Assembly: GCA_016715985.1 (NCBI GenBank)
Contig: JADJXD010000005.1
Coordinates: forward strand, 13,299-77,298
Source of the DNA: Saprospiraceae bacterium
GTDB lineage: Bacteria > Bacteroidota > Bacteroidia > Chitinophagales > Saprospiraceae
Direction of reading: 5' to 3'
DNA length: 64,000 nucleotides
Part shown: in pieces, positions 35,962 through 64,000 of the stretch
Numbering within the stretch: the first letter of the stretch is position 1
How the letters are laid out: each line of letters starts with the position of its first letter
Program-made: the position numbers and the translations under genes
The notes under the pieces: model-generated
What the model saw: only the letters and a program-made list of their open reading frames with translations
What the model was told of the DNA's origin: nothing
Database searches by the model: none

Positions 35962-36792
35962 TTAAACATTTCGCTTATTAAATATCCAATTAGTAAACGC
36001 CCCTACTGCCAAAGCGGCATTAACAATTTCATCTGTATTCGATTTATTTCCGTTGGCTAAATACTCATTATACTGATTTTGAGAAATTTTTCCATTTCTG
36101 TATAAGATAAGCATATACTCGTCTTTTTCTTGCTTTGTGGCAAGTCCTGCTCTAAGTCTGTCACCTAAGTAGGAAAGTCTTTGAAAGTCTAATAGGTTCT
36201 TTTGTGAAAAGTATGTTGGTCGTGGCTCTGCAGCAATGGCTAAATCTTCTTGTTTTACTTCAATTGTTTTTGGCTGCAATGCTTCTTTTAATGCCGTTTG
36301 GTAAAGCAAGGTTGTATATTCCTGATTGACTTTTACGCTTGTTTCCAATTCATCACACAAATTCATTAATTCCTCTATTTTGGAAACTATGCGTTTTTGT
36401 TCTGATAATGGTGGAAATGCAATGAAAAATTCGACTAAATCTCTTTGATATAAATGGGGTGTTGTTGCCCCCATAATTCTAGAATTAACTATTTTCTGAA
36501 AATGCTCGCTTAATAAATAATAATAAAGGAATTTTAATTGAACTTGCTTTGATGGTCGAATTAGAAGTAAAGATGAGTTTATTGTAGCGGGCTCCTGCAA
36601 ATCTTTAATTATTCCAAGTTTTCCTATACCCGCACCATCCTTACATATCAAAATATCACCATTTCTAAGCATTATCTCAGGACTCTCGTCATATCTCTCT
36701 TTTGAAATATGATAAGCCTGTGAATAATCAACGTAATCTCCATAGTTAAGTGAATAAACGGATAAAAAAGTGGGCCATTTTTTTGTATTCAC
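35962..36792 (-). CDS. hsdS: Type I R-M specificity subunit HsdS, C-terminal fragment
   Basis: Conserved region LSEQKRIVSKIEELMNLCDELE. Joins the upstream fragment if the T7 run (36778-36784) is shortened by one base. Confidence 0.8.
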   Translation of the reverse strand: MNTKKWPTFLSVYSLNYGDYVDYSQAYHISKERYDESPEIMLRNGDILICKDGAGIGKLGIIKDLQEPATINSSLLLIRPSKQVQLKFLYYYLLSEHFQKIVNSRIMGATTPHLYQRDLVEFFIAFPPLSEQKRIVSKIEELMNLCDELETSVKVNQEYTTLLYQTALKEALQPKTIEVKQEDLAIAAEPRPTYFSQKNLLDFQRLSYLGDRLRAGLATKQEKDEYMLILYRNGKISQNQYNEYLANGNKSNTDEIVNAALAVGAFTNWIFNKRNV

Positions 36793-37474
36793 TTGCTGTC
36801 AGTCCTTTCCAACCAATTCTACCATTCAATTCTGCAATTTCTCCAAGTCTGCACCAAGACCAGTTTGAAGGAGTTTTAAATGGAACATCAGCCAAATTTA
36901 TTTTGGGTAATGCTTTCTCTTTTTTGCCTGATTTTGCCTTCTCTACTTTTATCTTTTCAAGAAGTTTTGATGCTGGTTCGTCTTTTGGGTTTTGGGGAAC
37001 TAATTTACCTTGCATTGCATCTTTCAAAATCTGCTGTCGCAGTTTTTTGATTAACTCTAACTGGTGTGATTGTTCATTTATTAATTCATCCTTATATGAA
37101 TTACCCACTATGAACTTTGATTTAACTTCAAGTTGTTGTTTAATGTCAAAATATGGCAGACGATAATTTCCAAAAGACTTTAATCCAATTGCTTCTTTTG
37201 ATGTTCCTGCTTTAGTGTTTCTTACAATATCATCTTTCAAAACATTGAAAATAATATGATAAAATTGCAAGTCAATTGGATATTTCTCTTCATTCTTTGG
37301 GGTAAGAATAAAGCACAAATCGCTTGATATAAACTTGCCATTTACATAATGCGTTCTGCCTAATGAACCTGATGCAGCAGCAGCAAAAATTAATGCTTCA
37401 CAGTCATATACATATTCATTATGAGTTTTCCATTCAGAAGAAGCTGTAATGAAAGTGTATTTCCTGGTATGCAC
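36746..37474 (-). CDS. hsdS: Type I R-M specificity subunit HsdS, N-terminal and central fragment
   Basis: FITASSEWKTHNEY..ASGSLGRTHYVNGKFISSDLCFIL is a known TRD type. The true ATG at 37535 overlaps the hsdM stop and is out of frame by 1 nt near 37460-37462. Confidence 0.8.
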   Translation of the reverse strand: MHTRKYTFITASSEWKTHNEYVYDCEALIFAAAASGSLGRTHYVNGKFISSDLCFILTPKNEEKYPIDLQFYHIIFNVLKDDIVRNTKAGTSKEAIGLKSFGNYRLPYFDIKQQLEVKSKFIVGNSYKDELINEQSHQLELIKKLRQQILKDAMQGKLVPQNPKDEPASKLLEKIKVEKAKSGKKEKALPKINLADVPFKTPSNWSWCRLGEIAELNGRIGWKGLTASEYKKMAHFFIRLFT

Positions 37475-37532
37475 TTAGAACTTTGTAAAGTCCCTTTTTC
37501 AAACTGAAATAAATCTGATATTGGAACCAAAC

Positions 37533-38054
37533 TCATTTAACCGCCTGTTTTAATTGGTTCAACAAGTTATTGCTTTTAGCAAAACTCTTATCTAAAAGTT
37601 GCATCAATTCCTGTGTGTTGTTTTCGTGTTCTTCCTCTTGTTTGGTGGGGTTCTTAATATCCAAATCATAATTACGCTCAATAATGGTTTTGATATTTAC
37701 TTTCCAAGCTACCTCACTTTCTTTGCGTTTGTTCCACCATTTTTTAATCGGTTCAAGCTCTTTTATTTGAATTGGTTTAGTTTTGCTATATGCCTTTTGT
37801 CCTACAGGTAAACGATGTTCATAATACCAAATGTCTTTAGTAGATTTTCCTTTTTCAAAAAACAATAAGTTGGTTGCAACCGTTGCATAAGGTTGAAAAA
37901 CTGAATTTGGCAACCTAATAATCGTGTGTAGATTGCAATCTTTTAATAATTTCTCCCTAATTCTTTGTTTTACACCTTCACCTGTTAAACTCCCATCAGG
38001 TAAAACAATTCCTGCTCGTCCTTCATTTTTCAAAAGATGAATCATCAAAATCAA
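37533..38054 (-). CDS. hsdM: Type I R-M methyltransferase HsdM, C-terminal fragment
   Basis: LKNEGRAGIVLPDGSL.GEGV...IREKLL..CNLHTIIRLP. In frame with the upstream fragment if one base is added to the A4 run at 38053-38056. Confidence 0.85.
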   Translation of the reverse strand: MILMIHLLKNEGRAGIVLPDGSLTGEGVKQRIREKLLKDCNLHTIIRLPNSVFQPYATVATNLLFFEKGKSTKDIWYYEHRLPVGQKAYSKTKPIQIKELEPIKKWWNKRKESEVAWKVNIKTIIERNYDLDIKNPTKQEEEHENNTQELMQLLDKSFAKSNNLLNQLKQAVK

Positions 38055-38956
38055 AAGAGGTCTGCACTTTCTTTAGTTCGGAAGCTTTGAGGAAAATTGT
38101 TTTCGTTGTTATTGGCTACTATTCCCCCAAATGGCGGATTTGCCAATATTACATTTACACGGTGCTTCTCAGTAAAGTTGCTCAAAGGTTGGTCTAAAGC
38201 ATCACCAAATCGAATATTCGGCACTTCAATATCGTGCAAAATCAAATTGGTAGTTGCCAACAAATAGGGAAGTGGTTTATACTCCCAACCAATAATATTT
38301 TCTTCAATGGATTTTCTTTCTTTAACTGAATTAGCTTGCTTCTTCAAGTGTTCAATGGCACAAGTCAAGTAGCCACCCGTGCCGCAGGCAGGGTCCAATA
38401 TTTTCTCGCCAATTTGGGGGTTGATAATATCGGTAATGAATTGTGTAATGGCTCGTGGCGTGTAGAACTCTCCACTTTTACCTGCACTTTGCAATTCTTT
38501 TAATATATTTTCGTAAAGCTCACCAAAAGAATGGCGGTCTTTGGCAACATTAAAATCTAGCTCATTTAACTTGTTCAATACCTTTCGGATATTGATTCCG
38601 CTTTTCATATAGTTGTGATTGCCCTCAAAAACCTCACGAACAATTAAAGCCCTTCGGTTTCCCGTGCTTACATCCACATTTCTCAATGCAGGAAACAGTT
38701 CTCGGTCAACGAACTCTAACAATTCATCACCTGTCATTCCTTCATCATCACCTGCCCAAGCATCCCAATGAAATTTTGAAGGAATCGGAGATTTGTATTT
38801 GTCATCTAAGATTTCAAGTTCCTTGTCTTTGTCTGAAAATATTTTTAAAAATAGCATCCACCCCAATTGTTCAATGCGTTGTGCATCACCGTTCAATCCG
38901 GTGTCCTGCCACATTATTTTTCTTATGCTATCTATTATGCCTGATATATTTCCCAT
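38051..38956 (-). CDS. hsdM: Type I R-M methyltransferase HsdM, N-terminal fragment
   Basis: GEFYTPR, DPACGTGGYL and NPPFGG motifs. Confidence 0.9.
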   Translation of the reverse strand: MGNISGIIDSIRKIMWQDTGLNGDAQRIEQLGWMLFLKIFSDKDKELEILDDKYKSPIPSKFHWDAWAGDDEGMTGDELLEFVDRELFPALRNVDVSTGNRRALIVREVFEGNHNYMKSGINIRKVLNKLNELDFNVAKDRHSFGELYENILKELQSAGKSGEFYTPRAITQFITDIINPQIGEKILDPACGTGGYLTCAIEHLKKQANSVKERKSIEENIIGWEYKPLPYLLATTNLILHDIEVPNIRFGDALDQPLSNFTEKHRVNVILANPPFGGIVANNNENNFPQSFRTKESADLF

Positions 38957-38963
38957 TTATCTG

Positions 38964-39329
38964 TTACGCTATTTTATACAGTTCTTTTTCTAATTCTTTC
39001 ACGGCTTCAAGGTATTTTTCCTTGCTGCCAAACTCATTGATAATTTCGATCGGTGAACCGAAATCAGTAAGCGGCTTTACTTTTAAAACTTCAATGCTTT
39101 CAATGTTTGTAATGCCTTCGTCTGCATACTTGTCAAGTAGGGTTTCTAAAACTTTTACACCGGGAAAGCATTTCTTAACCCGTTGGATGTGGTTGTATCT
39201 GTCCTCGGGTTCCCCGCAAATTAAAACTCTGTCAATTTGTGGATGTCCTTTTACTTCACATGGGATGCACTCGGTTTTATGGCATCCGAAAGCGGAGAGG
39301 ATTAAAAAACAAATCAATAGCTTTTTCAT
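38964..39329 (-). CDS. chimeric ORF: lipoprotein-like signal peptide fused to an HsdR C-terminal-domain remnant
   Basis: N-terminus MKKLLICFLILSAFGC. The C-terminus VLETLLDKYADEGI..IE..VLKVKP...FGSP.EII.EFGSKEKYLEAVKELEKELY resembles the EcoEI-type HsdR C-terminal domain. No helicase or nuclease part is present. Confidence 0.5.
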   Translation of the reverse strand: MKKLLICFLILSAFGCHKTECIPCEVKGHPQIDRVLICGEPEDRYNHIQRVKKCFPGVKVLETLLDKYADEGITNIESIEVLKVKPLTDFGSPIEIINEFGSKEKYLEAVKELEKELYKIA

Positions 39330-46163: not shown

Positions 46164-46556
46164 TCAATTCTCAAACAATCCACCACCCAAATGCTTAGAT
46201 TTATAATCTTCCAATCCTTTAGCGGCGTGGAGCATTGCGTCGGCTCTTTGCTTTAAAGAATTTATTTGGCTACCAACATCGCTTAAATCAGTTGAACAAT
46301 AATAGCCTGATGAAGTCGCAATTAACGGGAGTATGCCATGACTTCTGATATGGTTTACTAATTTCCTCAATCGTGGTTCGCTGAGTTTTTTTGTTAGGCC
46401 ATATTTTGCATAGTCCTGATTTATGAATCTCACCACTTCAGGGGTTTTGATCGGATTATCTTTTGTCCGATTTCTGAAACCACGTACTAAAACATTTACA
46501 AGTCGCTGTTCTTCGTCAGTAAGTGGCTTGGTTATTTGCTCGAATGTTTCGATCAT
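46164..46556 (-). CDS. hypothetical protein
   Basis: 130-aa ORF with a 4-nt overlap with the upstream gene. Confidence 0.4.
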   Translation of the reverse strand: MIETFEQITKPLTDEEQRLVNVLVRGFRNRTKDNPIKTPEVVRFINQDYAKYGLTKKLSEPRLRKLVNHIRSHGILPLIATSSGYYCSTDLSDVGSQINSLKQRADAMLHAAKGLEDYKSKHLGGGLFEN

Positions 46557-47122
46557 ATAATTGTCTCTTGAAGTTGTTTGCAGATTAAAATGTACTGATG
46601 GTATTCTTTTATCTGCGCCGGTGTGTAATTGTTTTCTTCACCTGTTTTCTGAAATTCATTTTCCCATTCTGCAATTGATTTTTTAATACATCCAATTTGA
46701 ATTTCATTAGTTGCATACCAGTTTACAGAATGTCGAGAACCAATTAGAAATAGTGTTTTAAAAATCGATGCCCCGTTTCCAATCGATGCCCTGTTTCCAA
46801 TCGATGCCCTGTTTCCAATCGATGCCCCGTCTCCAATCGATGCCCCGTCTCCAATCGATGCCCTGTTTCCAATCGATGCCCCGTCTCCAATCGATGCCCT
46901 GTTTCCAATCGATGCCCCGTCTCCAATCGATGCCCCGTCTCCAATCGATGCCCTGTTTCCAATCGATGCCCCGTCTCCAATCGATGCCCCGTCTCCAATC
47001 GATGCCCCGTCTCCAATCGAAATGAGTCTTTTTTCTAATTCAGATTTTAAATCGCTCAAATTTTCGTATTCAAAATTAATTTTGTTGTAGTTTTCATCGA
47101 GTAGGTAAATTGCTTTTTTCAT
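46553..47122 (-). CDS. hexapeptide-repeat (left-handed beta-helix-like) protein
   Basis: 14 consecutive IG[DN][GR]AS hexapeptides, encoded by a perfect 18-bp tandem array. Confidence 0.55.
   Translation of the reverse strand: MKKAIYLLDENYNKINFEYENLSDLKSELEKRLISIGDGASIGDGASIGDGASIGNRASIGDGASIGDGASIGNRASIGDGASIGNRASIGDGASIGDGASIGNRASIGNRASIGNGASIFKTLFLIGSRHSVNWYATNEIQIGCIKKSIAEWENEFQKTGEENNYTPAQIKEYHQYILICKQLQETII
46764..47022. repeat. 18-bp tandem repeat x14.4 (ATCGATGCCC[CT]GT[CT]TCCA)
   Basis: 14 complete units of three sequence types (8 A, 5 B, 1 C hybrid). Open in all frames on both strands. Confidence 0.95.
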
Positions 47123-51714: not shown

Positions 51715-51840
51715 TTGACAGGCAAAGACTTAGAAAATATTATAAAATTATTGAGGTTCACCAATACGGAGGCAGCAAACATTCTTGGGGTTACTCGCCA
51801 AACCCTGTACACATGGATAGGCCGAGCAAAATGCCGTTAA
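51715..51840 (+). CDS. 41-aa Cro-like HTH protein (TTG start; not in the ORF track)
   Basis: ..RFTNTEAANILGVTRQTLYTWIG... This is the only convincing plus-strand gene. It is divergent from the 51368-51625 operon. Confidence 0.4.
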   Translation: MTGKDLENIIKLLRFTNTEAANILGVTRQTLYTWIGRAKCR

Positions 51841-51867
51841 GGTGTTTGGGATTTTGAATGATAGGAA

Positions 51868-52092
51868 TTAATCAAGGTCTTTAATTTGGAGCGAAATATC
51901 TACCCCGACAAATTCAGCTATTTTCAAAAATACATCCACCGAAGGGCAAAATTTCCCGTTTAGCATTTTGCTTAAATTCGCCTGATCTATCCCGGTTTTG
52001 GCCTCAATGTCCTTTTGGGTTATGCCTTTGTCGTATGCTGCCTGAAAGACATATTTTAAAAGCAGTAACCGGGATTCTTTTATTTTGGTCAT
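51868..52092 (-). CDS. XRE-family HTH regulator (repressor or antitoxin-like)
   Basis: GITQKDIEAKTGIDQANLSKMLNG is a classic XRE helix-turn-helix. Confidence 0.65.
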   Translation of the reverse strand: MTKIKESRLLLLKYVFQAAYDKGITQKDIEAKTGIDQANLSKMLNGKFCPSVDVFLKIAEFVGVDISLQIKDLD

Positions 52093-52337
52093 GGTTTTAT
52101 TGTTTGAGTGATTAGTGCTTTATGGCACTCCATAGATCGGTCTTCATGGCAAACTTCAAAATCCATAATTATGTAATCTTTTGAATAATATATCTTTCTC
52201 GCCACAATAAACCGTAGCTGAATATCACTACAAAGTTCTTGGATTGCTTTTCCAAGTTTGCCTTTTGGCACAAAACTCTTGGGCCACAAAATATCAAACA
52301 GGTTTAACGATTTGGCAAGTTCAAAGTCCAATACCAT
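52089..52337 (-). CDS. small protein translationally coupled to the XRE regulator (toxin-like position)
   Basis: ATGA overlap with the downstream HTH gene. I found no recognisable motif. Confidence 0.3.
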   Translation of the reverse strand: MVLDFELAKSLNLFDILWPKSFVPKGKLGKAIQELCSDIQLRFIVARKIYYSKDYIIMDFEVCHEDRSMECHKALITQTIKP

Positions 52338-52433
52338 TGTGTCTACTTAGTAAATCAAATTCCTTTTTTTCAGAAGAACTATCGCTCATTCTATTAAGGC
52401 CTTTTAGTAGTTGATTTTCAAAACAATCCGCAT

Positions 52434-53046
52434 TAAAAAGAGGTAACTATATACTTATTGGGACTAAATTCATTCCTCCGAAAGTCCAAAATCTCATTTT
52501 TTAGACTTTCTTCTTTACAGGCGTATAATCCGGTTTTGGTTCTTTAACCAACGCCTTGATTACCTGATCAAATGTACCGTGTATCTTTAACGGCTTATCG
52601 TATTTTGAAGCCCGAACTTTTGGTTCTTTTGGGGCTTTGTCAGGAATGCAAAGATCTTAATGATGCCGGAAAATAGTCCCTGTCTGACAATGGAGACGAA
52701 ATTCTAATTCATTAAATGGTTTATCCCAATTGTTACCAATTGAAATTCCATCGGTAACATCTGAATAAACGGTTGTCTTTCTATATACTCGCTTTGCGTC
52801 CGATACATTCAGGTTATGCATTGCACACAATTCGTATGCCCGTATCAAATCAAATTCATCACCAAAAAACCTAACAGTTGGAACATCAAAACAATGCCCC
52901 CTTCCTCCCTGACAAGATTCAAATGTTTCAAATCCGTATTTATTTAGTAATGCAACTGCTTCTCGGATGCCAAAATCAAGACCCTCTATTTGATCAACAT
53001 CAAATTTTTTATTTAGTCCCATTAGCTATATAGTTACCTAAAAAGA
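52434..53046. mobile_element. 597-bp transposon-like element: 28-bp terminal inverted repeats plus an 8-bp target-site duplication
   Basis: Inverted repeats at 52442-52469 and 53011-53038 (25/28 matches). TAAAAAGA lies directly outside both ends (52434-52441 and 53039-53046). Confidence 0.65.
52657..53022 (-). CDS. cargo ORF of the inverted-repeat element, unknown function
   Basis: 121 aa with its ATG inside the right inverted repeat. 51 further sense codons follow the TAA in frame, to 52501. Confidence 0.4.
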   Translation of the reverse strand: MGLNKKFDVDQIEGLDFGIREAVALLNKYGFETFESCQGGRGHCFDVPTVRFFGDEFDLIRAYELCAMHNLNVSDAKRVYRKTTVYSDVTDGISIGNNWDKPFNELEFRLHCQTGTIFRHH

Positions 53047-53582
53047 TATTTCCCGTTGTCGCTTGACCAGCAAAAAAATTCAGTGTGTTTCATATAATTT
53101 TACTTTACACGTATTTCAATAGCCTGATCCCAATTACTTTGTTAAAATCTCTTTAATCAAAGAGATATTACTGATGCTTATTGCCCTAATGCAATCGGAA
53201 GGAGTTAATCCTTTATAGCCTGTTTTGGCAGCAATCATCCCACCAATTGCATATAAATCATTTTGAGTGAAATGATTCAGGAACTTCAACTCGTAAGGAG
53301 TAAGACAGTTTTGGTTTTCGCTTACACTTTATTATCTTCTTCCCAAAAGGGAAAGGGGGCAACGTTTAAAAACCCCGGTTTTTTTTTCCCCCGGAGGTTA
53401 TTATGTTCTTGGTCTTTTCAAAGAAGTTCTGTTTGATGTGTTTTTTGGAACCCAGAGATAAATTGTTTTCATTTTAATTTGTTTTGTTGTTAATTAATGA
53501 TACAAAGATATGGCCTATTTGCCATATTCCTATACCCTAAAAGGCTATTTTTAATATATTTATTATTGTAATATGTTTGCTG

Positions 53583-53597
53583 GTTACAACTTGTAAC
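53583..53597. promoter_or_regulatory. 15-bp palindrome GTTACAA-C-TTGTAAC (operator-like)
   Basis: Read directly from the sequence. Lies in the ORF-poor end region. Confidence 0.35.
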
Positions 53598-53608
53598 GGT
53601 TTGCTTGT

Positions 53609-53643
53609 GGGGTAAGTTGGGGGGTATCTTAGGGGGTAATCTT
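53609..53643. repeat. three G-rich direct repeats (GGGGTAAGTT / GGGGGGTATCTT / AGGGGGTAATCTT)
   Basis: Read directly from the sequence. This composition is unique in the window. Confidence 0.5.
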
Positions 53644-53849
53644 TTGCGCAAAGTACCAAAAGTCGTTGCTTATTGCACAAAATTTCTAAATGTCCACGCT
53701 CCGTGAACACTTCGCCAAAATGAACGATAATGCGGAAATTCGCCTTTATGTGCGATCGGGTATAAAAATGGTTTATTCGGGCAAATTATATCTAAATAGG
53801 TATAATTTATAGCAACCTTGTCAGGCTTAAGCTGACACAATGAATATGA

Positions 53850-55061
53850 TTAATAACAAAAGATCGGGGCCTTTATGGTCATGCCTTTTTTTGAGTCAAT
53901 CAACGAATAACTCTGCATCGGATTTTCAGGACTTGCTCCAATACTTTGAGCATACACGTTAAACCCTATCCCGGAGCCGTTTACAATGCAGTCCTTTGTT
54001 GCTTGGAATAATTGATGATAATGCCCCATGAAATTATAATTAGCCTGTATCTGTTGGTTATAGCGGTGAATTGCTTTAATTAAAGGCACGGTTAGTCCTC
54101 CAATACCGCCCTGATAGCTTACTGTATCTCCATGCCAAAAGCGGCAAGTGTAGTCGTAAATGTCGCAATAAGAAAATAGGCCGTTTGGTATTTTAAACTC
54201 CACCCGTGTTTCGCCTTTCTGATTGAAGTAATCCGCTATATCATTGTACATCATCCACTCGTAAGAATTGCGGTAAGATGTTGCTATTTGCTTTTGCTTT
54301 GTTACCCGGCCATGATTTCCGTAACTACAAACAGCAATAATCTTCTTGTATTTTCCATGCTCCAAATAAAATTCAATGGCTGCAATAATGTTCTTTTTTG
54401 CAAAACGCACTGCCATTGTTGGGCTTAAGGAGTTCACTTGTTGCATTTCTTCGTGGATGTACCCGGTAATAAAATCACCGCCCAGCCATAAAACAAGGTT
54501 ATCAATTTGGGAGTGATTTCGGTCTATGTTTACAAGTCTTTGACTGTTTTGAATGCACCTTGACCACCTCTTTTGAGCAATCTCTAAATTGTATTCATTC
54601 AAATCATTTATTGTCTGAGGATCGACCGTTTCTTCGAAGTGCCAATCACTTAATAAAATTACCGGGGTAGCATGGTTTTTATTGTCGTTTTCCTTTGGTC
54701 TTTCAATGCTTGGAATCTCGTCTCCTTCTTTTATTGCCAACAGGAAATCGCATCGCTGTTCCAAAACTTCGTACTCTTTTAATAGGTGCTTGTACTTGGC
54801 CTCTGCCTGTCGTGCAATTGCCTTTTCTCGGTTTAACATCCGATCATTAAAGATCAATTCTGCTGCTGACGCTTCGCGCTTAGGTTGCTCCTGTACATTT
54901 GGTGCGCTACCCCTTACGTGGTCATATAGCTTTTTTCTGATGTAATTTCTCGGAGCATTTAATTCATTGGCTACTTTTAAAATAAAGTCGCTTCGACCTT
55001 CTCGTGGTGTGTTTCTAAATGCTTCTATGTAATTAGTGAGGTTATATTTTTGCTCTGCCAT
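53850..55061 (-). CDS. calcineurin-like metallophosphoesterase with an N-terminal HTH/coiled-coil extension (copy 2, complete)
   Basis: LLSDWHF (DxH), GGDF, YGNHGR, WHGD and GHYHQ motifs in canonical order. Confidence 0.7.
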   Translation of the reverse strand: MAEQKYNLTNYIEAFRNTPREGRSDFILKVANELNAPRNYIRKKLYDHVRGSAPNVQEQPKREASAAELIFNDRMLNREKAIARQAEAKYKHLLKEYEVLEQRCDFLLAIKEGDEIPSIERPKENDNKNHATPVILLSDWHFEETVDPQTINDLNEYNLEIAQKRWSRCIQNSQRLVNIDRNHSQIDNLVLWLGGDFITGYIHEEMQQVNSLSPTMAVRFAKKNIIAAIEFYLEHGKYKKIIAVCSYGNHGRVTKQKQIATSYRNSYEWMMYNDIADYFNQKGETRVEFKIPNGLFSYCDIYDYTCRFWHGDTVSYQGGIGGLTVPLIKAIHRYNQQIQANYNFMGHYHQLFQATKDCIVNGSGIGFNVYAQSIGASPENPMQSYSLIDSKKGMTIKAPIFCY

Positions 55062-55064
55062 TAC

Positions 55065-55505
55065 TTAAATTTTTAACCAAACGAACGCAAACAAATCGGG
55101 ATGAATGACCGGGTTACGGCCCCTGTTCTCGAATCTGCACATTTCGTTTATTATTAAATAGATTTCCTCTCGCTTCCATCTGATAACCTGTCGTGATCTC
55201 ATGCCCGTGCCAATTGAAACGGCCTCATAATATGGCTGTAACTCCGTGCCGGGTCGTGCATATTTATTTATTAACTTCTCTATTGTATTGGCCTTGTCTA
55301 AGTGGATGTAATTGCATACCGTTGCCAGCATTGCATGAATGCCGTTATGGTAAAAGTCGAATGACTCATAAACCTTTTGGCCCGACTTTGTGGTCTTTCC
55401 TGTCCATGCCATTTTTGAAATATAGATACCTCCCGGATTATTGAGTTTCATTAGCCGGGTGGCATTGGGGTAATTTTCAAATGTTATCAATTCGGGTGTG
55501 GTCAT
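55065..55505 (-). CDS. phage late protein of unknown function (copy 2)
   Basis: 146 aa, differing at 1 residue from 605-1045. Confidence 0.5.
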   Translation of the reverse strand: MTTPELITFENYPNATRLMKLNNPGGIYISKMAWTGKTTKSGQKVYESFDFYHNGIHAMLATVCNYIHLDKANTIEKLINKYARPGTELQPYYEAVSIGTGMRSRQVIRWKREEIYLIINEMCRFENRGRNPVIHPDLFAFVWLKI

Positions 55506-55939
55506 AAAGTCCTGTAACCGAGTAGCCTTGATTTTTTGAAATCTGCAATTGAAACACTATCCATTGAATTGCCGGATAGCAATTTTACCGTGTCGAGATT
55601 TTCGTTTATGTAAAGTCCTATGTGTCCTTTTCCGGGGCCTCTTTCCAAAATGCACAAATCCCCAAGTTTGGGATGATCTGTTTTAGTTCCGACCTCTAAG
55701 AATTTACGAGCTGCAACAATATGTAATTTATTGCTGGGCCAAATGCCGGACTCGATTAAAATATTTGAAACGAAACATCCACACCATGCGAACTGTGAAT
55801 CGTCTTCCGGGCGTGAAATTTTGAGGGAATCGCATGAGGCGAATATCCACGCCTTTACTGTTTCATCCCAGCCAATTGGATTTTCTTTTGTGCCGAGATA
55901 TTTTATCCCGGTGAGAAATAGCTTTTCAGAATTATTCAT
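55502..55939 (-). CDS. NlpC/P60-like (TIGR02594-like) cell-wall peptidase, endolysin candidate (copy 2)
   Basis: Same motifs as copy 1, with a few substitutions. Confidence 0.6.
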   Translation of the reverse strand: MNNSEKLFLTGIKYLGTKENPIGWDETVKAWIFASCDSLKISRPEDDSQFAWCGCFVSNILIESGIWPSNKLHIVAARKFLEVGTKTDHPKLGDLCILERGPGKGHIGLYINENLDTVKLLSGNSMDSVSIADFKKSRLLGYRTL

Positions 55940-55959
55940 ATAGGTCTGTTTTTTGAAGT

Positions 55960-55990
55960 AAAAAAACAGGGCAAGGCGTTACCCCTGCCC
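55960..55990 (-). terminator. rho-independent terminator (copy 2)
   Basis: Same stem and U7 tract as at 1500-1530, with one loop substitution. Confidence 0.6.
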
Positions 55991-56005
55991 CGTGTCATAA
56001 TTTAC

Positions 56006-56407
56006 TTATTGGGATTTCCTGATAAGTGCGACCTCGCAATCCACTTTTAAAGACTGTGTGCCGGAAGTTATCGAAGTAAATCTCAATGCCCCACAGGGCA
56101 CGTTTCCGGTGATCGCTGCCGGGGTTGTTTGAACTCCGTCAATTGTTACAGTTGACAAAGTTTTCCAAACGTTTCCACCATAGAGCCTGTGTTCAACTTT
56201 GAACGTTCCGGTTGTTGTGCCAGAGAGTGAATCCGCAACCACATTGATATGATAGTTGTAAGGATAAGTCAAATCCAAACAAGTATTTACTACTGTGTCC
56301 GCATTTGTCAGGGTGTCGAGATATGTTCGTACTGCTGTACTTGCGTTTCCGTCAACCCTTGTGTTTTGCGCTTCGACCGAAAAGGCGAAGGCCACAAAAG
56401 AAATCAA
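56006..56407 (-). CDS. secreted small protein (copy 2; 5' end frameshifted, signal-peptide start lost)
   Basis: A5 here versus A6 in copy 1 just after the ATG. The C-terminus is 14 aa longer than in copy 1. Confidence 0.5.
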   Translation of the reverse strand: MISFVAFAFSVEAQNTRVDGNASTAVRTYLDTLTNADTVVNTCLDLTYPYNYHINVVADSLSGTTTGTFKVEHRLYGGNVWKTLSTVTIDGVQTTPAAITGNVPCGALRFTSITSGTQSLKVDCEVALIRKSQ

Positions 56408-56523
56408 GATTAAAAATACTTTTTCATAGTTCTTAAATATTTAAGGTGAATAAAAAACAGTTTTAAAAACAGGGCAAATTTGACCTAAGCCGCCTTTGCC
56501 CCATTGCTGATATGAAACACAAC

Positions 56524-56916
56524 CTATTTTTTGGCTGTTAAAGGCTTGATACTGGATTCTCCTTTGGTAATCGTTCTCAATACCACGTTAATAATTGCGA
56601 GTAATAATCCTGCAATCGTTGGAATCCAAGTTGAATCACATACCCAAGCCTTGTTGAAAAGCTGAAATACGAATGTCAGAACTTCGCAAACCCATTGTGA
56701 AATACCTGTCCAGTCTTTCGCCTCCATAAAAGTGATAATAACGGCCAGCGTATTTATCAGAATGGTTCGTGATCCTTCGAGTGCAGCCCAAATCTTACTC
56801 ACTCCCGGAATAAGTTTAATGGCCCAAAAAAGAGGTTGTGGGATTTTTATAATCAAATCCGCAATTGTTGTAAACAGTTTTAGGATGAACTGCAAAACCG
56901 TAATTACTGTGTTCAT
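56524..56916 (-). CDS. holin-like multi-TM membrane protein (copy 2, intact)
   Basis: 130 aa with several hydrophobic segments and a basic C-terminus. Lies next to the endolysin candidate. Confidence 0.5.
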   Translation of the reverse strand: MNTVITVLQFILKLFTTIADLIIKIPQPLFWAIKLIPGVSKIWAALEGSRTILINTLAVIITFMEAKDWTGISQWVCEVLTFVFQLFNKAWVCDSTWIPTIAGLLLAIINVVLRTITKGESSIKPLTAKK

Positions 56917-56927
56917 ATAGTTGTTAT

Positions 56928-57152
56928 TTAAAATGGTTTAATGTTGTGAGTGCATGAATCTTGCATTATTTTTTCCGTCAGGGTGTCTATTCTTTTATTC
57001 AGAATTTCCATTTCTTCGAGTAGTTCGTTTTCCGTTACCGATATTTCGAGCCTTTCAAAATCTGCCTTTGTGGTTTTTAGTTTTACAGGCTCAAACAAGG
57101 CGGCTGCACATAAAGCAGCAAGCCAAAACAAAACGATCTTTGCCTCTGCCAT
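56928..57152 (-). CDS. membrane-anchored coiled-coil protein (copy 2)
   Basis: Differs at 1 aa from 2467-2691. Confidence 0.4.
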   Translation of the reverse strand: MAEAKIVLFWLAALCAAALFEPVKLKTTKADFERLEISVTENELLEEMEILNKRIDTLTEKIMQDSCTHNIKPF

Positions 57153-57424
57153 TACTCAATAATATTTTCAAGGTTTTCAATTTTAATATTTGCACTCTCA
57201 ATTTGTGATATCATATATTCTGCAAATTGATCCAGCTTCATTTCACATCTTTTATGCGCTTCCTTACACTCTTTCAGTTGTTCCATTACAAAAGCATCAT
57301 TGAGTTTATTTTCTGCCCTCCATTCATTCCAAAGGATGTAGATTATCAAAGTTGATCCCATGAAGATTAACCTTGATTTTTCATCCTTGAATGCCTTTAA
57401 TATGAGGTCTAATATCTTTTGCAT
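57152..57424 (-). CDS. membrane-anchored coiled-coil protein (copy 2)
   Basis: Translation identical to 2691-2963. Confidence 0.4.
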   Translation of the reverse strand: MQKILDLILKAFKDEKSRLIFMGSTLIIYILWNEWRAENKLNDAFVMEQLKECKEAHKRCEMKLDQFAEYMISQIESANIKIENLENIIE

Positions 57425-57567
57425 TGGTTTTCTATTAGGTTGGTTTGCAAAATGATTTTATAACTCCAATATTTTTATAAATGCTTTGGCAACTGCATTT
57501 GGTAAAGTTTGATTTGTATCAGAATTTGTGATCTCTTTTTTTGTGGCATGGTTTTTTGTTTTTTTGG

Positions 57568-60500
57568 TTAATTTAATATTGCTCCGTAGCATAGTTTTTG
57601 TACATAAATATCCCTTGCGTTTGATCCGACTCCTTTAAAGATTCCTGTTCTTGGCCCGATTGGTAAATTATTAGCAAGTGGACTTGCCATTTTGCCAACA
57701 TACACACCGTCGATATAAAATCTAATTTCGCTGTTGGCTTTGTTGAGTTCTGTTCTAAGTGTATAGTTGACATCCACTGCCACAGCAATTCCTAAGTCCA
57801 ACAACGTTTCAGAACCTCCTGAATTTTTTGTGTATCCAACCCAATTACCCCCATAAACTCCGTGAGAATATCTAATGCCATAAGACGAGTTAGGAAGTTT
57901 AGAAGTTGAAAAAGGAGAACTTGCAACAACCCCTGATACAATTGTGAAAGAGTCTGTACCAGTTGACAATGTATTCATGGTCAGCATTGATTCCGTATAA
58001 AAATGACATTGGCTTGTAAGACCTGGAGATTCAGCCGTTTTTTGCAAATACACAACTGTTGCCCCTGATGCTGATGTTTGTGTGCCAAGATACCAAGCCG
58101 AGAGTGGCGTATTTCCATTTGACGCCTCCTGCGAATATGACAATCCTGATGCTGTTGCGAAAGCGATATTTCCCAAATCTCCTGCCGTTGTCGAGCCGGG
58201 AGCGTGGCAATCATCAACCGTTTTAAATCCTGTCGGTCTTTTGTAGCCAATGGGAACCCAACGATCCAAAGTACCATCGTAATAAAATCGAATAGAACTT
58301 TTCTTCATTAAAATCAAATCTTCCGAAAAATGAATGCGATTGGCTGCTGTTCCATCTGTGTGTTCCGGTGCGAAATACAAATTATAATCCCCAACATTTA
58401 CAATGGTCTTTTCTTCCCCATCTGTTTGTGCCTCCATTGAAGTGATCCCCCAGAATCCATCTGAAGAAACCCGTACAATATTTGCATCTCCAAACCCTGT
58501 TGGATTATAGTTGTCTTGTTCGCTTGTTATTTGCGATGGAGTTATTACTGATGGTGTTATTGTTTGCCAGTTGGCATTTGCTCCGTCTGACATGAGGACT
58601 TGTCCTGCTGTTCCTTTTGATCCGTTTATGTCAATTCTTAGTGTTTGGGGTTTTAGATTTATTACATCGGACCTAACATAAATGGAGTCAGAATCCACAT
58701 CAATTTTGGAGTTGTCCGTTCCATCGTTTGCGTATAACTGAGCGTAGTTTTCATTAGCATAAATCCAGCATTCATCTGTTGTCTTGGTGTTCTTAATAAT
58801 CCATGATCCATTTTCCGAATAAATCCGACTAAAAATATTATTCGTGGAATCATTTGCATACATATAAATCTCATCATCAAACCAAAAACCCCTATCTGCA
58901 TTTGTGATGGCTCCTGATGGATAATTCTTAATATATCCCATCATAAAATCAGCTCCGCGATTAAATGAGATGTAATCATTGTCTCCCATTAAACCGTTTT
59001 GGACTTCGGTAAAACTGACAGCGTTGTTATCGACTGACCAAACACCCCCCGAAACAGTTATATCTCCATAATCTGCATCACTTACCCCACCAGTTGCGGT
59101 TAAGTCATATTCAGTACCAGCGTCATTTTTGAAATATAACTTTCCATCCGTTTTCGCATAAGTATATCCAAAACCACTTGCCGGAGTTGAAGGGGCCGCT
59201 ATCTCTGCTGTTTTTAATTGTTTATCGAATTGAGTTTCGCCTGAAAATAAATTCAAAGTATTTGCCCCTGATTGATAAATTCCATAAGTAGATGCATTGG
59301 AATAAGGAATATTTACACCTCTGTAAGTTGCACTTGCTAAACTGGTTAAAGTTGGGTTTATGTTTAATCCTATTTGTGCGCCGCTTCCAGTTGAAGTAAT
59401 GTTATAAACGTTTGCAATTTCTATGGCTGTCATTGTTCCACTTCCCGAAGCTTTGACATATTCATCGCGAAATTTCATAATGTCCTTGTCTAAGCCAGGT
59501 GCAGTAAAATCGCTTATGGCATCGCCTATGAAAATACTTGATGTGTCGTTTTGTACATTAATACTTATACCATCGAGATTATCATTTATGATTGAAATTC
59601 CTTGATCTGATGTGATCTCATAGTCTAATTGAGGAAAGACCCCAGCGTTGTTTATAACAACATTATCCCCGGTTCCAACTGTTAACTGATCGGAAATTCT
59701 TACTGTTGGAGTTTCGATTTCAACTGAATCAACTTCAACTCTTATCGTGGTTGTGGTTCCATTTGTTGCATAAATAGCAAAATAATCCTTCCATTGGTCT
59801 ATTTCTGTGTATTGTGTGTTTGCGGTGTTTGTTGCCCTAATTGCAAGTTGATCGTCCATTCTTATATAAGAGTAGGCAGCATTTACGCTATCTGCTCCCA
59901 TTAAATAGACCTTGCCGCTTGATCCCTCAAAAAATAGCCCTCTGTTTCTTGGTGTGGTTCCCAAAGTTGGGAAATTATAAAAATACCCAAGTCCAAAATC
60001 ATCAGGGTTTGCGATGCTTGTCGCTGTTTGTGCGTAAGTACCATCTGATACTGTGCCATCGCCTCCATAAATACCACCACCAGAAGAAATCAATGTTGTT
60101 CCTGACATTGATAACCCGGAGCCCAATGTAATAGCTGCAATATTTCCAGTTGATCCCCTGCCAAGTAATTGAGAAGCAGATAAAGCTACTTCTGCCACAT
60201 TAGCTGACCCTGCTGTATTATTTGCAAGAACTGAATTTGCGGCAACGTTTTGAAGTTTTGCATAGGTAACTTGATCGTCTCCAATGTCTGCTGTGGCAAT
60301 TGCTCCGTCGTTTATTTCAGTTGTAGTAATTGTTGAAGCGTCGATGTTCCAAACAGTTCCACTACTTGAAACCGTTATATCTCCTTTGTCTCCATCTGAA
60401 ACGCCTGTTACATCTGATAAGTAGGCAATCGTTTCACGGGTGGCCCCTGTGGTTTTGGTAAAGTAAAGTCTATCTGTTAAAAACTCAATTGCCCCAACTT

Positions 60501-63500
60501 CTTCCGTTGTTAAAAGTGAGCCTGAATTTAATTTGATCGGTGCGGTATTAGCAGAAGTTGACCCGGCTTGAATATGAAGTTTTGCCGTTGGATTGGTGAT
60601 TGCGGTTCCCCCTCCTGAAATTGAAACCATGCCATCGGGATCAATCCTCATTCTTTCATTGGCCGAGGCAAGGCCCCCGGTTGCAAAAACGATTTCGTCG
60701 GCTCCTTCTGTGATTAATCTTAAACCTGCGCTTGTGCTTGTATTAGTTTTAATTACTGCTGAACTTGCAGCAAACAATCCGCTTGTTGAATAAGATGCTC
60801 CGAGGTGATAAATTTCAAGGCCCTGTGTTCCAAGTGTGCCGCCCGGCTCCAAAATTTCGACAAGTGAATAATCCGACGTAGAATTTGAAAGCCCAAAGAC
60901 ACCATCTGCCCCGGCTGTGTTTCTTAGAATTATTCCTGTTAAATTTCCGTTTGTGTACCCGTGTATTTTACCCCCGGTGTTTGAAATTATTTCACTACCT
61001 GATCCTGCTGCAAATGTTGCAGAAGAATTAAAGGTTTTGGCTCCTCCAAATGTTTGTGTTCCCGTTGTTACGGCTCCACGATTTGAGGCACTTGCATCAG
61101 GCAAATTAAAAGTGTGAGTACTTCCTGAACTTGAAATATTAAAGTTAGTTCCCGATGTTCCAACGACCATTGTTTGAGCCACATCTGTAAGCCCATTTAT
61201 AGAAGTTATGCCTCCGCCTCCGCTTACTTTTATTGAGTCGTTTGAAATAGTTAAACCATTTCCTATAACCAACTCTTGAACGTCTCCTGTACCTCCGGTA
61301 TATCTTCCTAAAACCTTACCTGTTGCCATGTTTTGTATTTTGGCGTAGGTTACAGCGTCGTTATCTATGGTCATAGTTAACCCACTTCCCGAAGTTGTCA
61401 GGTCTCCAAAATCTCGGTCATTAATTGCAAGTAATGGAGTGCCGTCAACATATTGAAGTGAGGTGTTTATCATCGCTCCAACTGCATCCTGAGCGTCCTC
61501 AGTTGTGAATCCTCCTGATGAATTAATTGTGAGAGCGGTTCCAGTTCTTGAGATCGTTATTCCTGTGCCCTCAACAAAAGAAATATCTGAGGCCGTGCCT
61601 GACAAGTCCAGTGTAAAAGTCGTACCATCGTCTGACCCGGAAAATCCTTGAGCGTCTGTGTTATCCAAGTAAGCAGCCAACGAAACTGAATCTCGAATTA
61701 CACCGTCATCATCGAGTGAAATTCTTAGAAAATTATTCGTTATGTCGAGCGTGTCAATGCTTTGGTTATCGGTGTCAACTTCTGTAATGTCGATCGTGTT
61801 GCCTCCTGAAATTGTGATTTCGTCTGTGCCTGAATTGTAGCTTAATGTTTGAGCGTCTGTGTTATCAAGATAAGGGGCAAGGTTTACAGTTTTAAAAACC
61901 TGTGCATCATCTTCGAGTGATAATCTTAAAAGATTTGAGGCAATTTCAAAAGTGTCTATCGTTTGATTGTCGGCACCGGCTGGAATTGTTATGATTTTTC
62001 GGTTTTCCCCATCATTTAAAAGAGATAAGAAAATTGTATCATTTGATCTTGTGAATGTGTCAATAGTTTGGATTTCATTAGTTGCGGAGCTATCATTTAA
62101 AACCACAAATCCACCGCCTAAATCAAGCCTTAAAGTTCCTTTTCCTGCGGTTGCCGTGAGTGCCTGAATTTCGTTTGAAGTTGACCCGTCAATTTCTGTG
62201 GCATCAATTGTCAAAGTGTTGGCCGCAGGGTTGTAATCCGTTGTTACAATTCCTGATCCTTCAAAAGTTACTGTTTGATTTGAAATTACTTCGGTGTCTG
62301 CATCATCTCCATCAATTGTCCACGCTTCATTTGTTACAGAGCCGTCCACTTCCGAGCCATTGGACGCTGATGTTATCCTTCCGTCTGCATCAACTGTTAA
62401 TGTTGCGAGTGTGTAAGTGGCTGGTGTAACGGCTGTGCTTATTAATTCACTTGCTCCAACTGAATTAGCGGTTATGTGATCGACTCCCACCGCATTTGAA
62501 ATGATTTTAACGGCTGTAACCGAGCTATCGGCAAGGTCAACGGTGGCAACTCCTCCGGTGGCTATTTCTGTGCTTCCAATTACTCCTGCGTCTATTTCCC
62601 AAACCGAGCCGCCTGAAACAGTAATGTCTCCTTTGTCTCCATCGCTTATTCCTCCGGTGGCCGTTAAATCAAACTCTGTTCCTGCATCGTTTTTAAAATA
62701 AATAAGTCCGTCGGTTTTTTCATACAATCTTCCATAACCACTTGCCGGGGTGCTTGGTGCTGAAATCTCTGCCGTCTCAATGTAGTTTCCAAATATCGTT
62801 ACTCCGGTGAATAAGTTTCTTGTATTAGCTCCATTTTGATAAATGCCATAACTTGTTGCATCATCGTAATTCATGTACACCCCACGAACGCCCCCATTTG
62901 TGGCCGTGATCGTTGGATTAATATAAATTGGAGCATACCATCCAGCCGCCCCTCCTGTTTGGTTTATTGTTTTACCAAAATAAAAATCCGCTAAATCTCC
63001 CGTGCCACTTGTTGGTTGAAATGTATTTTCAAACGCCCATTCTTTCTTAAGTCCTGCCGTGTGAGTTCTTCCATTTGATGCTAAGTGCCCGTAAACAGAA
63101 GTTGCGCCACCTTGAATATCAAAATACATAGCGGCTCCTGATGTGGCTGTGCTTTGAATTGTAAGTGTATTGTTATTTGCACGTATAGAATAATTTTGAG
63201 CTGCTGAAATGGAGCTCGCCCCAATGCTTACAGCATTTGATGTTCCGACGCTTAGAATTGAGGATGTAGATATACTGGCCCTCTTTGTGCCGTTGGTTTC
63301 AAAATTCAAAGCAAAATTATCGTTGGTTCCTATGGTGATTTCTGCCCCGTTTGTATTCCCATTTTGAATTATAAAATCTGTGGTGGCATCCGTTGGGGTA
63401 ATTGTGCCATCAGTAATTTTGGCAGATGTTACAGCGTTGTCGGCCAGTTTCCCGGTCGTTACTGCTAAATCATTTATCTTGCCTGTGGTAACAGCTAAGT

Positions 63501-64000
63501 CATTTATCTTAGCAGTTGTTACGGCTGCATCATTTATTTTTATCGTTGTGATAGCGTTTGTGTCAACTGTCCAAACTGTGCCCGTAGATGTAACGTCTAT
63601 GTCTCCATAATCTCCATCGGCAATGCCTCCGGTGATGTCAGATAAATAAGCAATTGTTTCCCTTGTTGCTCCTGTTGTTTTAGTGAAATAAAGACGATCA
63701 GAATTAAATTCCAACGCCCCAACTTCGGGGGTTGTATTTAGTGATCCTGATGTGAATTTTATTGGCGCTGTTCCGGCTGCTGTGCTTTGTGCTGCAATAT
63801 GTAGTTTAGCGGTTGGATTATCAACTGCCGACCCATTAGCAGCAAGTCCTACGTTTCCACTTAAGGAAACATTTAATCTTTTTGTTCCGTTAGTCCATAA
63901 CGAAAGATCATTATTTGCTTTATAGTAAGAGTGTTTTAAATTGCCTATTGCTGATATGGTAAATGAAGAATCGGCTCTTGCAACAACTCTTGAAGACGAG
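57568..64000 (-). CDS. giant modular tail fibre (allele 2; 5' end beyond the window; C-terminal domain fused)
   Basis: The frame is open from 57568 to the window edge; the listed start at 63714 is only the first TTG. Shares blocks with allele 1 but has different modules and an insertion of roughly 400 codons. Confidence 0.75.
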   Translation of the reverse strand, partial: SSSRVVARADSSFTISAIGNLKHSYYKANNDLSLWTNGTKRLNVSLSGNVGLAANGSAVDNPTAKLHIAAQSTAAGTAPIKFTSGSLNTTPEVGALEFNSDRLYFTKTTGATRETIAYLSDITGGIADGDYGDIDVTSTGTVWTVDTNAITTIKINDAAVTTAKINDLAVTTGKINDLAVTTGKLADNAVTSAKITDGTITPTDATTDFIIQNGNTNGAEITIGTNDNFALNFETNGTKRASISTSSILSVGTSNAVSIGASSISAAQNYSIRANNNTLTIQSTATSGAAMYFDIQGGATSVYGHLASNGRTHTAGLKKEWAFENTFQPTSGTGDLADFYFGKTINQTGGAAGWYAPIYINPTITATNGGVRGVYMNYDDATSYGIYQNGANTRNLFTGVTIFGNYIETAEISAPSTPASGYGRLYEKTDGLIYFKNDAGTEFDLTATGGISDGDKGDITVSGGSVWEIDAGVIGSTEIATGGVATVDLADSSVTAVKIISNAVGVDHITANSVGASELISTAVTPATYTLATLTVDADGRITSASNGSEVDGSVTNEAWTIDGDDADTEVISNQTVTFEGSGIVTTDYNPAANTLTIDATEIDGSTSNEIQALTATAGKGTLRLDLGGGFVVLNDSSATNEIQTIDTFTRSNDTIFLSLLNDGENRKIITIPAGADNQTIDTFEIASNLLRLSLEDDAQVFKTVNLAPYLDNTDAQTLSYNSGTDEITISGGNTIDITEVDTDNQSIDTLDITNNFLRISLDDDGVIRDSVSLAAYLDNTDAQGFSGSDDGTTFTLDLSGTASDISFVEGTGITISRTGTALTINSSGGFTTEDAQDAVGAMINTSLQYVDGTPLLAINDRDFGDLTTSGSGLTMTIDNDAVTYAKIQNMATGKVLGRYTGGTGDVQELVIGNGLTISNDSIKVSGGGGITSINGLTDVAQTMVVGTSGTNFNISSSGSTHTFNLPDASASNRGAVTTGTQTFGGAKTFNSSATFAAGSGSEIISNTGGKIHGYTNGNLTGIILRNTAGADGVFGLSNSTSDYSLVEILEPGGTLGTQGLEIYHLGASYSTSGLFAASSAVIKTNTSTSAGLRLITEGADEIVFATGGLASANERMRIDPDGMVSISGGGTAITNPTAKLHIQAGSTSANTAPIKLNSGSLLTTEEVGAIEFLTDRLYFTKTTGATRETIAYLSDVTGVSDGDKGDITVSSSGTVWNIDASTITTTEINDGAIATADIGDDQVTYAKLQNVAANSVLANNTAGSANVAEVALSASQLLGRGSTGNIAAITLGSGLSMSGTTLISSGGGIYGGDGTVSDGTYAQTATSIANPDDFGLGYFYNFPTLGTTPRNRGLFFEGSSGKVYLMGADSVNAAYSYIRMDDQLAIRATNTANTQYTEIDQWKDYFAIYATNGTTTTIRVEVDSVEIETPTVRISDQLTVGTGDNVVINNAGVFPQLDYEITSDQGISIINDNLDGISINVQNDTSSIFIGDAISDFTAPGLDKDIMKFRDEYVKASGSGTMTAIEIANVYNITSTGSGAQIGLNINPTLTSLASATYRGVNIPYSNASTYGIYQSGANTLNLFSGETQFDKQLKTAEIAAPSTPASGFGYTYAKTDGKLYFKNDAGTEYDLTATGGVSDADYGDITVSGGVWSVDNNAVSFTEVQNGLMGDNDYISFNRGADFMMGYIKNYPSGAITNADRGFWFDDEIYMYANDSTNNIFSRIYSENGSWIIKNTKTTDECWIYANENYAQLYANDGTDNSKIDVDSDSIYVRSDVINLKPQTLRIDINGSKGTAGQVLMSDGANANWQTITPSVITPSQITSEQDNYNPTGFGDANIVRVSSDGFWGITSMEAQTDGEEKTIVNVGDYNLYFAPEHTDGTAANRIHFSEDLILMKKSSIRFYYDGTLDRWVPIGYKRPTGFKTVDDCHAPGSTTAGDLGNIAFATASGLSYSQEASNGNTPLSAWYLGTQTSASGATVVYLQKTAESPGLTSQCHFYTESMLTMNTLSTGTDSFTIVSGVVASSPFSTSKLPNSSYGIRYSHGVYGGNWVGYTKNSGGSETLLDLGIAVAVDVNYTLRTELNKANSEIRFYIDGVYVGKMASPLANNLPIGPRTGIFKGVGSNARDIYVQKLCYGAILN

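Follow-up and report, generated by a model that had tools for sequence, protein, structure and literature searches.

The DNA analyzed here is a stretch of 64,000 nucleotides, referred to below as the window, which holds the genome of a tailed phage with a large terminase (identified with Pfam), an exonuclease (phrog_284), giant tail-like ORFs, and one tRNA-Met. Nearly all of the genes in the window are carried by the minus strand. An intergenic element of 597 bp, the parts of which are listed in Table 1, occupies positions 52442 to 53038. It lies upstream of an 82-aa ORF and an HTH_3 gene, at a distance of about 100 bp. The element is bounded by inverted repeats that agree at 25 of 28 positions; a repeat finder lengthened the arms by one base, to 29 nt with 26/29 matches (90%). 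The same octamer abuts both arms on the outside and in the same orientation. Between the repeats is an intact gene for a 121-aa protein, which we call p121. This gene makes up 61% of the length of the element, its start codon is 16 nt from the terminus, and the proximal repeat codes for its first four codons, M-G-L-N. An earlier note on this DNA, made from the sequence alone, had reported the 28-bp inverted repeats, the perfect 8-bp direct duplication, and a 121-aa ORF starting within the right repeat, and all three proved to be as described.

When the window was searched with a degenerate 28-mer, allowing up to three mismatches, two sites were found in the 64 kb, and these were the two arms of the element; no site was found in 100 dinucleotide-preserving shuffles. 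From the base composition (~35% GC), we estimated the probability of a random 8/8 match between the flanks to be approximately 3e-5. The pre-insertion junction falls in no credible ORF, and we therefore conclude that no gene was disrupted by the element. A scan of the locus for promoters and terminators gave signals at the level of shuffled sequence, with a sigma-70 promoter model that is ill-suited to Bacteroidota. Because p121 is co-oriented with the adjacent phage genes and has 16 nt of element sequence upstream of it, its expression is most likely due to read-through from phage transcription.

Table 1 Coordinates of the features of the 597-bp element and of a second cassette in the window
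Feature	Position	Strand	Sequence or basis
Target-site duplication, copy 1	52434–52441		TAAAAAGA, same as 53039–53046
Target-site duplication, copy 2	53039–53046		TAAAAAGA
Terminal inverted repeat, p121-distal end	52442–52469	+	GGTAACTATATACTTATTGGGACTAAAT; same as the corresponding ends of L001 and L027; 26/28 vs. the right end of L002
Terminal inverted repeat, p121-proximal end	53011–53038	−	GGTAACTATATAGCTAATGGGACTAAAT (reverse complement); 28/28 vs. the left ends of L001, L002, and L027
p121 cargo gene, intact, 121 aa	52657–53022	−	ATG within the terminal repeat; motif S-C-x-G-G-x-x-H invariant
Headless remnant of a small basic ORF, 46 codons plus stop, no ATG	52501–52641	−	Translation; intact homologues in relatives
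Internal deletion junction, 8-bp microhomology GACAAAGC	52634–52641	−	Alignment with L001 and L002
Sister cassette (element B), 1,031 bp	33276–34306		Perfect 25-bp terminal repeats GGTAACTATATACTTATTCATCCTG; PAPS-reductase-like gene

The phage that carries the element is a Sphingobacteriaceae phage; the annotated protein that matches p121 at 100% is from a Sphingobacteriaceae MAG. Positions 1 to 4582 of the window are 97.9% identical to positions 54461 to 59044, a period of 54,460 bp. With a genome unit of ~54.5 kb, the window covers more than one unit, and it contains the locus with the 597-bp element once. Past the 97.9% repeat, the giant tail-fibre-like ORFs at 3853–10383 and 57568–63714 drop to 70–85% identity. 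Because the ends are 97.9% identical and the tail-fibre-like ORFs have diverged, the window contains two non-identical genome units end to end; possible explanations are a tandem prophage, a concatemer, and an assembly made from two strain variants. At 46763–47020 an 18-bp unit, AATCGATGCCCCGTCTCC, is repeated 14.3 times in tandem with 93% matches. This array lies inside a 189-aa ORF (46553–47122, minus strand) and is a hexapeptide repeat at the protein level.

A relative with the same ends and an IS1595 transposase

The earlier note had interpreted the element as an ORF-carrying, non-autonomous product of DDE-type transposition, and had proposed a search for autonomous copies with the same ends and a transposase. 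Such a copy is present in L002, a Logan metagenomic contig of 3,113 bp whose first and last bases are exactly the element termini. Its left end corresponds to the 53038 end of the window element and its right end to the 52442 end, with the matches given in Table 1. The first 405 bp of L002 have 100% identity to the window. Since the last ~180 bp, at the 3′ end, are only 75% identical, L002, although closely related to the window element, is not its direct parent. In order, L002 contains the left repeat, a p121 gene whose 121-aa product is identical to that of the window, a convergent 56-aa Cys-rich ORF, the transposase gene, a restriction-modification pair (a BglII-like endonuclease, 1.5e-47, and an MT-A70 methyltransferase, 5e-32), and, beside the right repeat, a 50-aa basic ORF.

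The L002 transposase has 305 aa (ORF 656–1573) and matches NF033547, ‘IS1595 family transposase’, with 199.5 bits (cut-off 75). It also matches PF12762 over the full profile (1–153 of 153; 147 bits, 4.6e-43) and, at its N terminus, the Zn-ribbon PF12760 (47 bits, 2.4e-12). An alignment with the transposases of two other metagenomic elements, L019 and L004 (described below), and of Bacteroides faecis showed that the catalytic D, D, and E(x6)K residues are kept, in DETF, TDEW, and NSIEGFWSLLK; E242 and K249 are invariant. Elements of the IS1595 family have one transposase, with Zn-ribbon and DDE domains, and usually make 8-bp target duplications (PMC8101967). The termini, for which no IS family had been named in the earlier note, can thus be assigned, and the family is IS1595. 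We presume that the ends, GGTAACTAT, resemble the consensus of the ISNwi1 group of this family.

The best annotated relative of the L002 transposase is the B. faecis protein, which is encoded on a plasmid and has 48.5% identity; one GGTAATTATATA end was seen around its gene, and the partner end was not found. Searches of species-representative genomes gave no close relative of the transposase and no match (0) to the element termini, and no relative was confirmed in IMG/VR by an exact-peptide-word search, which reaches close relatives only. In the window itself no transposase was detected, either within 52442–53038, as the earlier note had stated for the element, or elsewhere; tblastn with the L002 IS1595 transposase gave a best E of 1.4.

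Other elements with these ends

The window contains a second cassette, element B, whose repeats share their outer 18 nt with the 52442 terminus. It has no transposase. Its cargo is a 281-aa PAPS-reductase-like gene (33341–34186, minus strand) that matches phrog_424, ‘PAPS reductase’ (3.6e-44), and PF01507 (22.3 bits), with a weak match to SspD in PADLOC. The flanks of element B, ATTATTGG and ATATTTTT, show no clean 8-bp duplication; they agree at 7/8 positions when two extra G residues are allowed. A 243-aa ORF upstream (34250–34981, minus strand) enters element B by 56 nt. Its match to a PHROG profile of 279 positions is confined to positions 11–235, and the insertion of element B may have replaced the 3′ end of this ORF. 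In total, the window has four GGTAACTATATA ends, compared with 0.6 expected by chance.

A 690-bp copy with the same ends was found in L001 (MAG GCA_016715905.1, JADJXI010000010.1, 5985–6674). It carries p121 and an intact 52-aa ORF, and is located at a different locus of a phage that is 92–97% identical to the window phage. The flanks of this copy have no 8-bp duplication. In L001 the p121 cassette abuts the interior of the PAPS-reductase cassette, at the equivalent of window position 34238, and ~4.9 kb (window 34239–39146) are missing. This arrangement has the appearance of a deletion associated with the elements or of recombination between copies, and such a rearrangement beside the copy would account for the mismatched flanks.

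The L027 and L028 contigs have an element of 2,342 bp with both ends identical to those of the window element and no 8-bp duplication. It contains a p121 homologue, p128, which is 69% identical and likewise starts M-G-L-N within the repeat, and a 76-aa transposase stump that is 96% identical to the C terminus of the L002 transposase. Its further content is an NPPF-motif methyltransferase-like ORF, a 174-aa ORF, and a small basic ORF. In L008, a 33-kb phage contig, there is a 1,672-bp cassette with the same ends, a perfect 8-bp duplication (TTCTTTTA), and neither a transposase nor p121. The L008 cargo consists of a divergent small basic ORF and two larger proteins, one of 198 aa that is weakly PIN-like and one of 217 aa that is a coiled-coil protein; L005 and L011 share this insertion. 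Single ends were present in five more metagenomic contigs, and in one contig, L009, the context is chromosomal.

A more distant full-length relative of 2,925 bp was found in L019 and L020. Its repeats are perfect over 27 bp (GGTAATTACATACTTGACAGACCCAAA, beginning GGTAATTACATA), and its 8-bp duplication, AATAAACT, is also perfect. Besides an IS1595 transposase, it encodes a p121 homologue with 53% identity (p124), a 55-aa ORF homologous to the Cys-rich one, an RHH protein, and two unknown ORFs. L004 contains two nested IS1595-type elements, an outer one at 5956–12338 and an inner one at 6565–11787, neither with a clean duplication. The outer element is transposase-less and has a p121 homologue at its start; besides its IS1595 transposase, the inner element, of 5.2 kb, encodes a trypsin-like protease and a 646-aa HATPase_c_3 protein.

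Comparison of 20 ends showed that G1, G2, A4, A5, T7, A8, and A10 are common to all. A clean 8-bp duplication was present in three of the eight complete family members (window, L008, and L019) and absent from L001, L027, element B, and both L004 elements; a cause is evident in L001 only. These elements bear on a statement in the earlier note that the repeats could be coincidental or regulatory if no other copy of the termini were found: the ends recur at unrelated sites and with different internal content.

Two GC-richer phage contigs of other lineages in IMG/VR, L051 (199–2865) and L096 (1360–4528), have an IS1595 transposase and a p121-family gene within one repeat pair. The inverted repeats of these units are 23–24 bp long and have different sequences. 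The association of p121 with IS1595 recurs across lineages.

Internal deletion and the small ORFs

In L001 the octamer GACAAAGC occurs twice, 93 bp apart; the window has one copy, and the intervening DNA is absent. The first copy is at the same place after p121 in L002, where it marks the point at which identity to the window ends. As a result of the deletion, the window copy has no Cys-rich ORF, and its small basic ORF lacks the first codons. The deletion also explains a 173-aa read-through form of the cargo that was mentioned in the earlier note. The deletion left 46 codons that are by chance in frame after the TAA of p121, and this produced the apparent read-through. We rejected the 173-aa form as a gene product, because its in-frame tail is the 5′-truncated remnant of a separate 52-aa ORF; every copy retains the TAA stop, and the usual length of homologues is ~100–135 aa. 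The read-through is an artefact.

Intact versions of this small lysine-rich ORF, 50–52 aa in length, were found in L001 (6457–6615, 52 aa), L002 (2902–3054, 50 aa), L009 (2389–2541, 50 aa), and L027 (2349–2504, 51 aa). The small basic ORF of L008 is a divergent form, and the window has the remnant. The lysine-rich ORF (..KVRASKYDKPLKIHGTFDQ.IKALV..) always adjoins one element terminus. Its product may have an accessory or regulatory role in the transposon; alternatively, the ORF may be a coding overlap with subterminal DNA to which the transposase binds. The Cys/His-rich ORF of 55–56 aa (HHNN..C...PLC..C..LN) is found at 363–533 in L002, 5350–5517 in L019, and ~6340–6500 in L003, in each case on the minus strand. 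It is convergent with p121, overlaps the p121 3′ end, and has no Pfam match. The 55-aa L019 ORF and its 56-aa L002 homologue have 52% identity (E 1e-17). By reading of the sequence, the L003 version seems to have an in-frame stop.

Origin of the 597-bp form

We consider it very probable that the DNA at 52442–53038 is a non-autonomous, internally deleted derivative of a passenger-carrying IS1595-family transposon, that is, a mobile insertion cassette. To judge from the sequences, the parent type is represented by L002, whose ends and IS1595 DDE transposase support the earlier description of the element as a DDE-type, non-autonomous derivative. An IS1595-type DDE transposase would bind the 28-bp ends, in which the blocks GGTAACTATATA and TGGGACTAAAT are conserved, and would insert the element into an AT-rich target by staggered cuts 8 bp apart, and repair of the stagger would give the TAAAAAGA duplication. 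Deletion between two GACAAAGC octamers would then have removed the transposase and the other cargo, leaving p121 whole and the small basic ORF headless. Because the window has no transposase, any further movement would require that one be supplied in trans, presumably by a full-length copy in the host or a co-resident element.

We lean slightly toward the proposal that the 597-bp form moved as an already short element. It is possible, though rather doubtful, that the shortening took place in situ. By that account an autonomous IS1595 transposon of ~2.3–3.1 kb inserted at this locus and then underwent a microhomology deletion in the phage, and the 597-bp form is a dead relic that never transposed. 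The junction at GACAAAGC is what such decay would leave, and the graded derivatives of 3,113, 2,342 (with the transposase stump), 690, and 597 bp can be read in the same way. Phage packaging limits would favor the loss of 2.5 kb. In addition, the L001 junction falls within the 93 bp by which L001 and the window differ, so that descent of one short form from the other cannot be demonstrated. However, the 690-bp and 597-bp forms occupy two loci in phages that are 92–97% identical, and their 5′ and 3′ parts are essentially identical; movement of a shortened element is the simpler explanation for this. Other transposase-less phage cassettes with the same ends also exist, namely L008, with its intact 8-bp duplication, and element B. 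Because shortened forms are present at two loci in sister phages and other cassettes of this kind occur in phages, we regard mobilization in trans as somewhat more likely.

The p121 family

A search with p121 gave 64 homologues at E ≤ 0.001, with 46–100% identity, and the family includes at least 1,129 cluster representatives (50%-identity clusters) at E ≤ 1e-3. Residues S36, C37, G39, G40, H43, R61, R78, W99, and N104 are invariant in the family, and the proteins of the window, L001, and L002 are 100% identical. No match to p121 was found in Pfam, NCBIfam, PADLOC, or PHROGs, and longer members of the family have no fused Pfam domain. The structure prediction suggested in the earlier note was performed with AlphaFold2 and yielded a confident fold (mean pLDDT 88.6); it led to no significant match in the PDB. 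A sequence profile search of the PDB gave none, and the best fold match, to ribosomal protein chains (E 0.018, TM 0.38), was not meaningful. A fold search of BFVD gave one match, to an uncharacterized phage protein.

Relatives of p121 are present in 74 IMG/VR contigs, and IS1595 transposase sequence was found within 4 kb in three of them, as two full-length transposases and as fragments in L080. In both of the full-length cases, the transposase and the p121-like gene are inside one inverted-repeat pair. We conclude that p121 belongs mainly among the ordinary accessory genes of phages and has been acquired by several IS1595 lineages; a role as an accessory of the element is less probable.

We considered as very unlikely the proposal that p121 is a mobility or accessory protein, like the small ORF of mycobacteriophage mobile elements, and that the cassette is semi-autonomous. 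Such a role would fit the finding that p121 is intact in every derivative with these exact ends (window, L001, L002, and L027), and that the terminal repeat contains its start codon. It would also fit the finding that L019, L051, and L096 each have a p121-family gene and an IS1595 transposase in one repeat-bounded unit, that the p121-family gene of L027 shares its unit with a transposase stump, and that the one in L004 belongs to a transposase-less outer unit enclosing a nested IS1595 element. However, L008 and element B share the outer terminus and have no p121, and the duplication of L008 is clean. In 71 of the 74 viral loci with p121 relatives, no IS1595 transposase was found within 4 kb. 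The predicted fold has no similarity to a nuclease, recombinase, or HTH protein, and comparison of p121 with GenBank phages, MPME-bearing mycobacteriophages included, revealed no detectable similarity.

Search for an empty site

The earlier note had also proposed a search for empty sites containing a single TAAAAAGA. No exact empty-site allele was found. The reconstructed empty site has the sequence ...AATCCGCATTAAAAAGATATTTCCCGTTG..., with a single TAAAAAGA, and an exact 30-mer from it had no match in IMG/VR. Neither blastn of positions 51800–53700 against GenBank phages nor exact-protein look-ups of both flanking genes gave a match. The 82-aa neighbor has one homologue (57% identity), and the contig with this homologue stops short of the site; the exonuclease relatives in IMG/VR have at most 58% identity and no synteny. 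In the nearest relatives, L022 to L024, which have a 99% identical exonuclease, unrelated DNA of 378 bp is present instead of the 2.1 kb at 51743–53818. These contigs were rejected as empty sites because the whole 2.1-kb module is absent, and not the element alone.

The 2.1-kb stretch extends from the exonuclease gene to the early genes and holds the element, the 82-aa ORF, and the HTH_3 gene. Its 378-bp replacement in L022 and L023 (9244–9621 in L022) contains a 79-aa ORF. Positions 51743–53818 are a hypervariable accessory module.

The location of the repeats in an early or regulatory region, beside the HTH_3 gene, and the failure to find an empty site would suit the proposal that they are coincidental, or an operator or terminator structure of the phage with no mobile element, but zero matches were expected by chance and identical ends occur in unrelated contexts with differing cargo, once with a transposase, and this proposal is in effect refuted by the independent copies.

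Relation to known elements

IS1595-family elements with passenger genes have been called ‘transporter IS’ (Siguier, Gagnevin and Chandler 2009, cited in PMC3129680 and PMC8101967). L002 and L019 resemble them in having a single transposase with Zn-ribbon and DDE_Tnp_IS1595 domains, repeats starting with GG, and non-transposition genes inside; an 8-bp duplication is present in L019, as it is in the window and L008. There are two differences: the L002 transposase is <50% identical to its best annotated match, and the window element is without its own transposase and is not autonomous. Since no transposase is present in the window, the window element is an IS1595 derivative and not an IS.

The accepted terms for IS derivatives are MICs, MITEs, and ‘transporter IS’, a MIC having IS-type repeats around non-transposase genes (PMC3129680). 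An example is MIC231 of Bacillus cereus (De Palmenaer et al. 2004, cited in PMC3129680). The window element agrees with the MICs in that IS-type repeats flank a non-transposase gene, there is no transposase, and the target is duplicated. It differs from MIC231, which is of the IS231/IS4 type, in being of the IS1595 type, in its location in a phage genome, and in that its mobilization in trans is deduced. IS elements and MITEs have been reported to be rare in phages, which has been read as a result of strong purifying selection (Nadal-Molero et al. 2024, PMC11602168). Like the MITEs of prokaryotic viruses, the window element is short, non-autonomous, bounded by repeats, and located in a phage; however, MITEs are non-coding by definition, whereas the window element has an intact 121-aa gene that belongs to a conserved family, and for this reason we did not classify it as a MITE. 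The earlier note had called the location of the element unusual, and this is borne out: elements of this type were already known but are uncommon in phages.

Mobile elements MPME1/2 of mycobacteriophages are ~440 bp long and have a small ORF of ~120 aa and short terminal repeats. The window element is likewise an ultra-small phage element with short terminal repeats and one ORF of ~120 aa. It differs in that a cognate DDE transposase family was identified, in its 8-bp duplication, and in the dissimilarity of p121 to the proteins of GenBank phages. MPME1/2 are mentioned in PMC5356059.

Significance

Both MICs and passenger-carrying IS1595 elements have already been described, and current concepts are unchanged by these results. 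Their importance lies in the finding that one phage has two different transposase-less cassettes with IS1595-type ends, despite the reported rarity of IS elements in phages, and that the same ends elsewhere carry restriction-modification systems and other accessory genes. Among the cassettes, the cargo seen included two different restriction-modification pairs, a PAPS-reductase-like gene, and a PIN-like pair.

A broader proposal, which we put forward as speculative and consider unlikely, is that p121, often together with the 55–56-aa Cys-rich ORF, is a conserved accessory module of a clade of IS1595 transposons, and that the GGTAACTATATA-ended cassettes are a general vehicle that moves defense and counter-defense genes and ‘moron’ genes between Bacteroidota hosts and phages. 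If p121 were such a module, it would be a new family of IS-associated proteins that might, for example, regulate transposition, select targets, or counter host defense. Apart from that proposal, the p121 family deserves attention as an uncharacterized family with a confidently predicted, novel-looking fold and no Pfam entry, which repeatedly travels with IS1595 transposases. The elements provide a practical marker for linking phages to hosts. Transposition of mini-cassettes in trans would be a testable route by which single accessory genes enter phage and host genomes and move between them.
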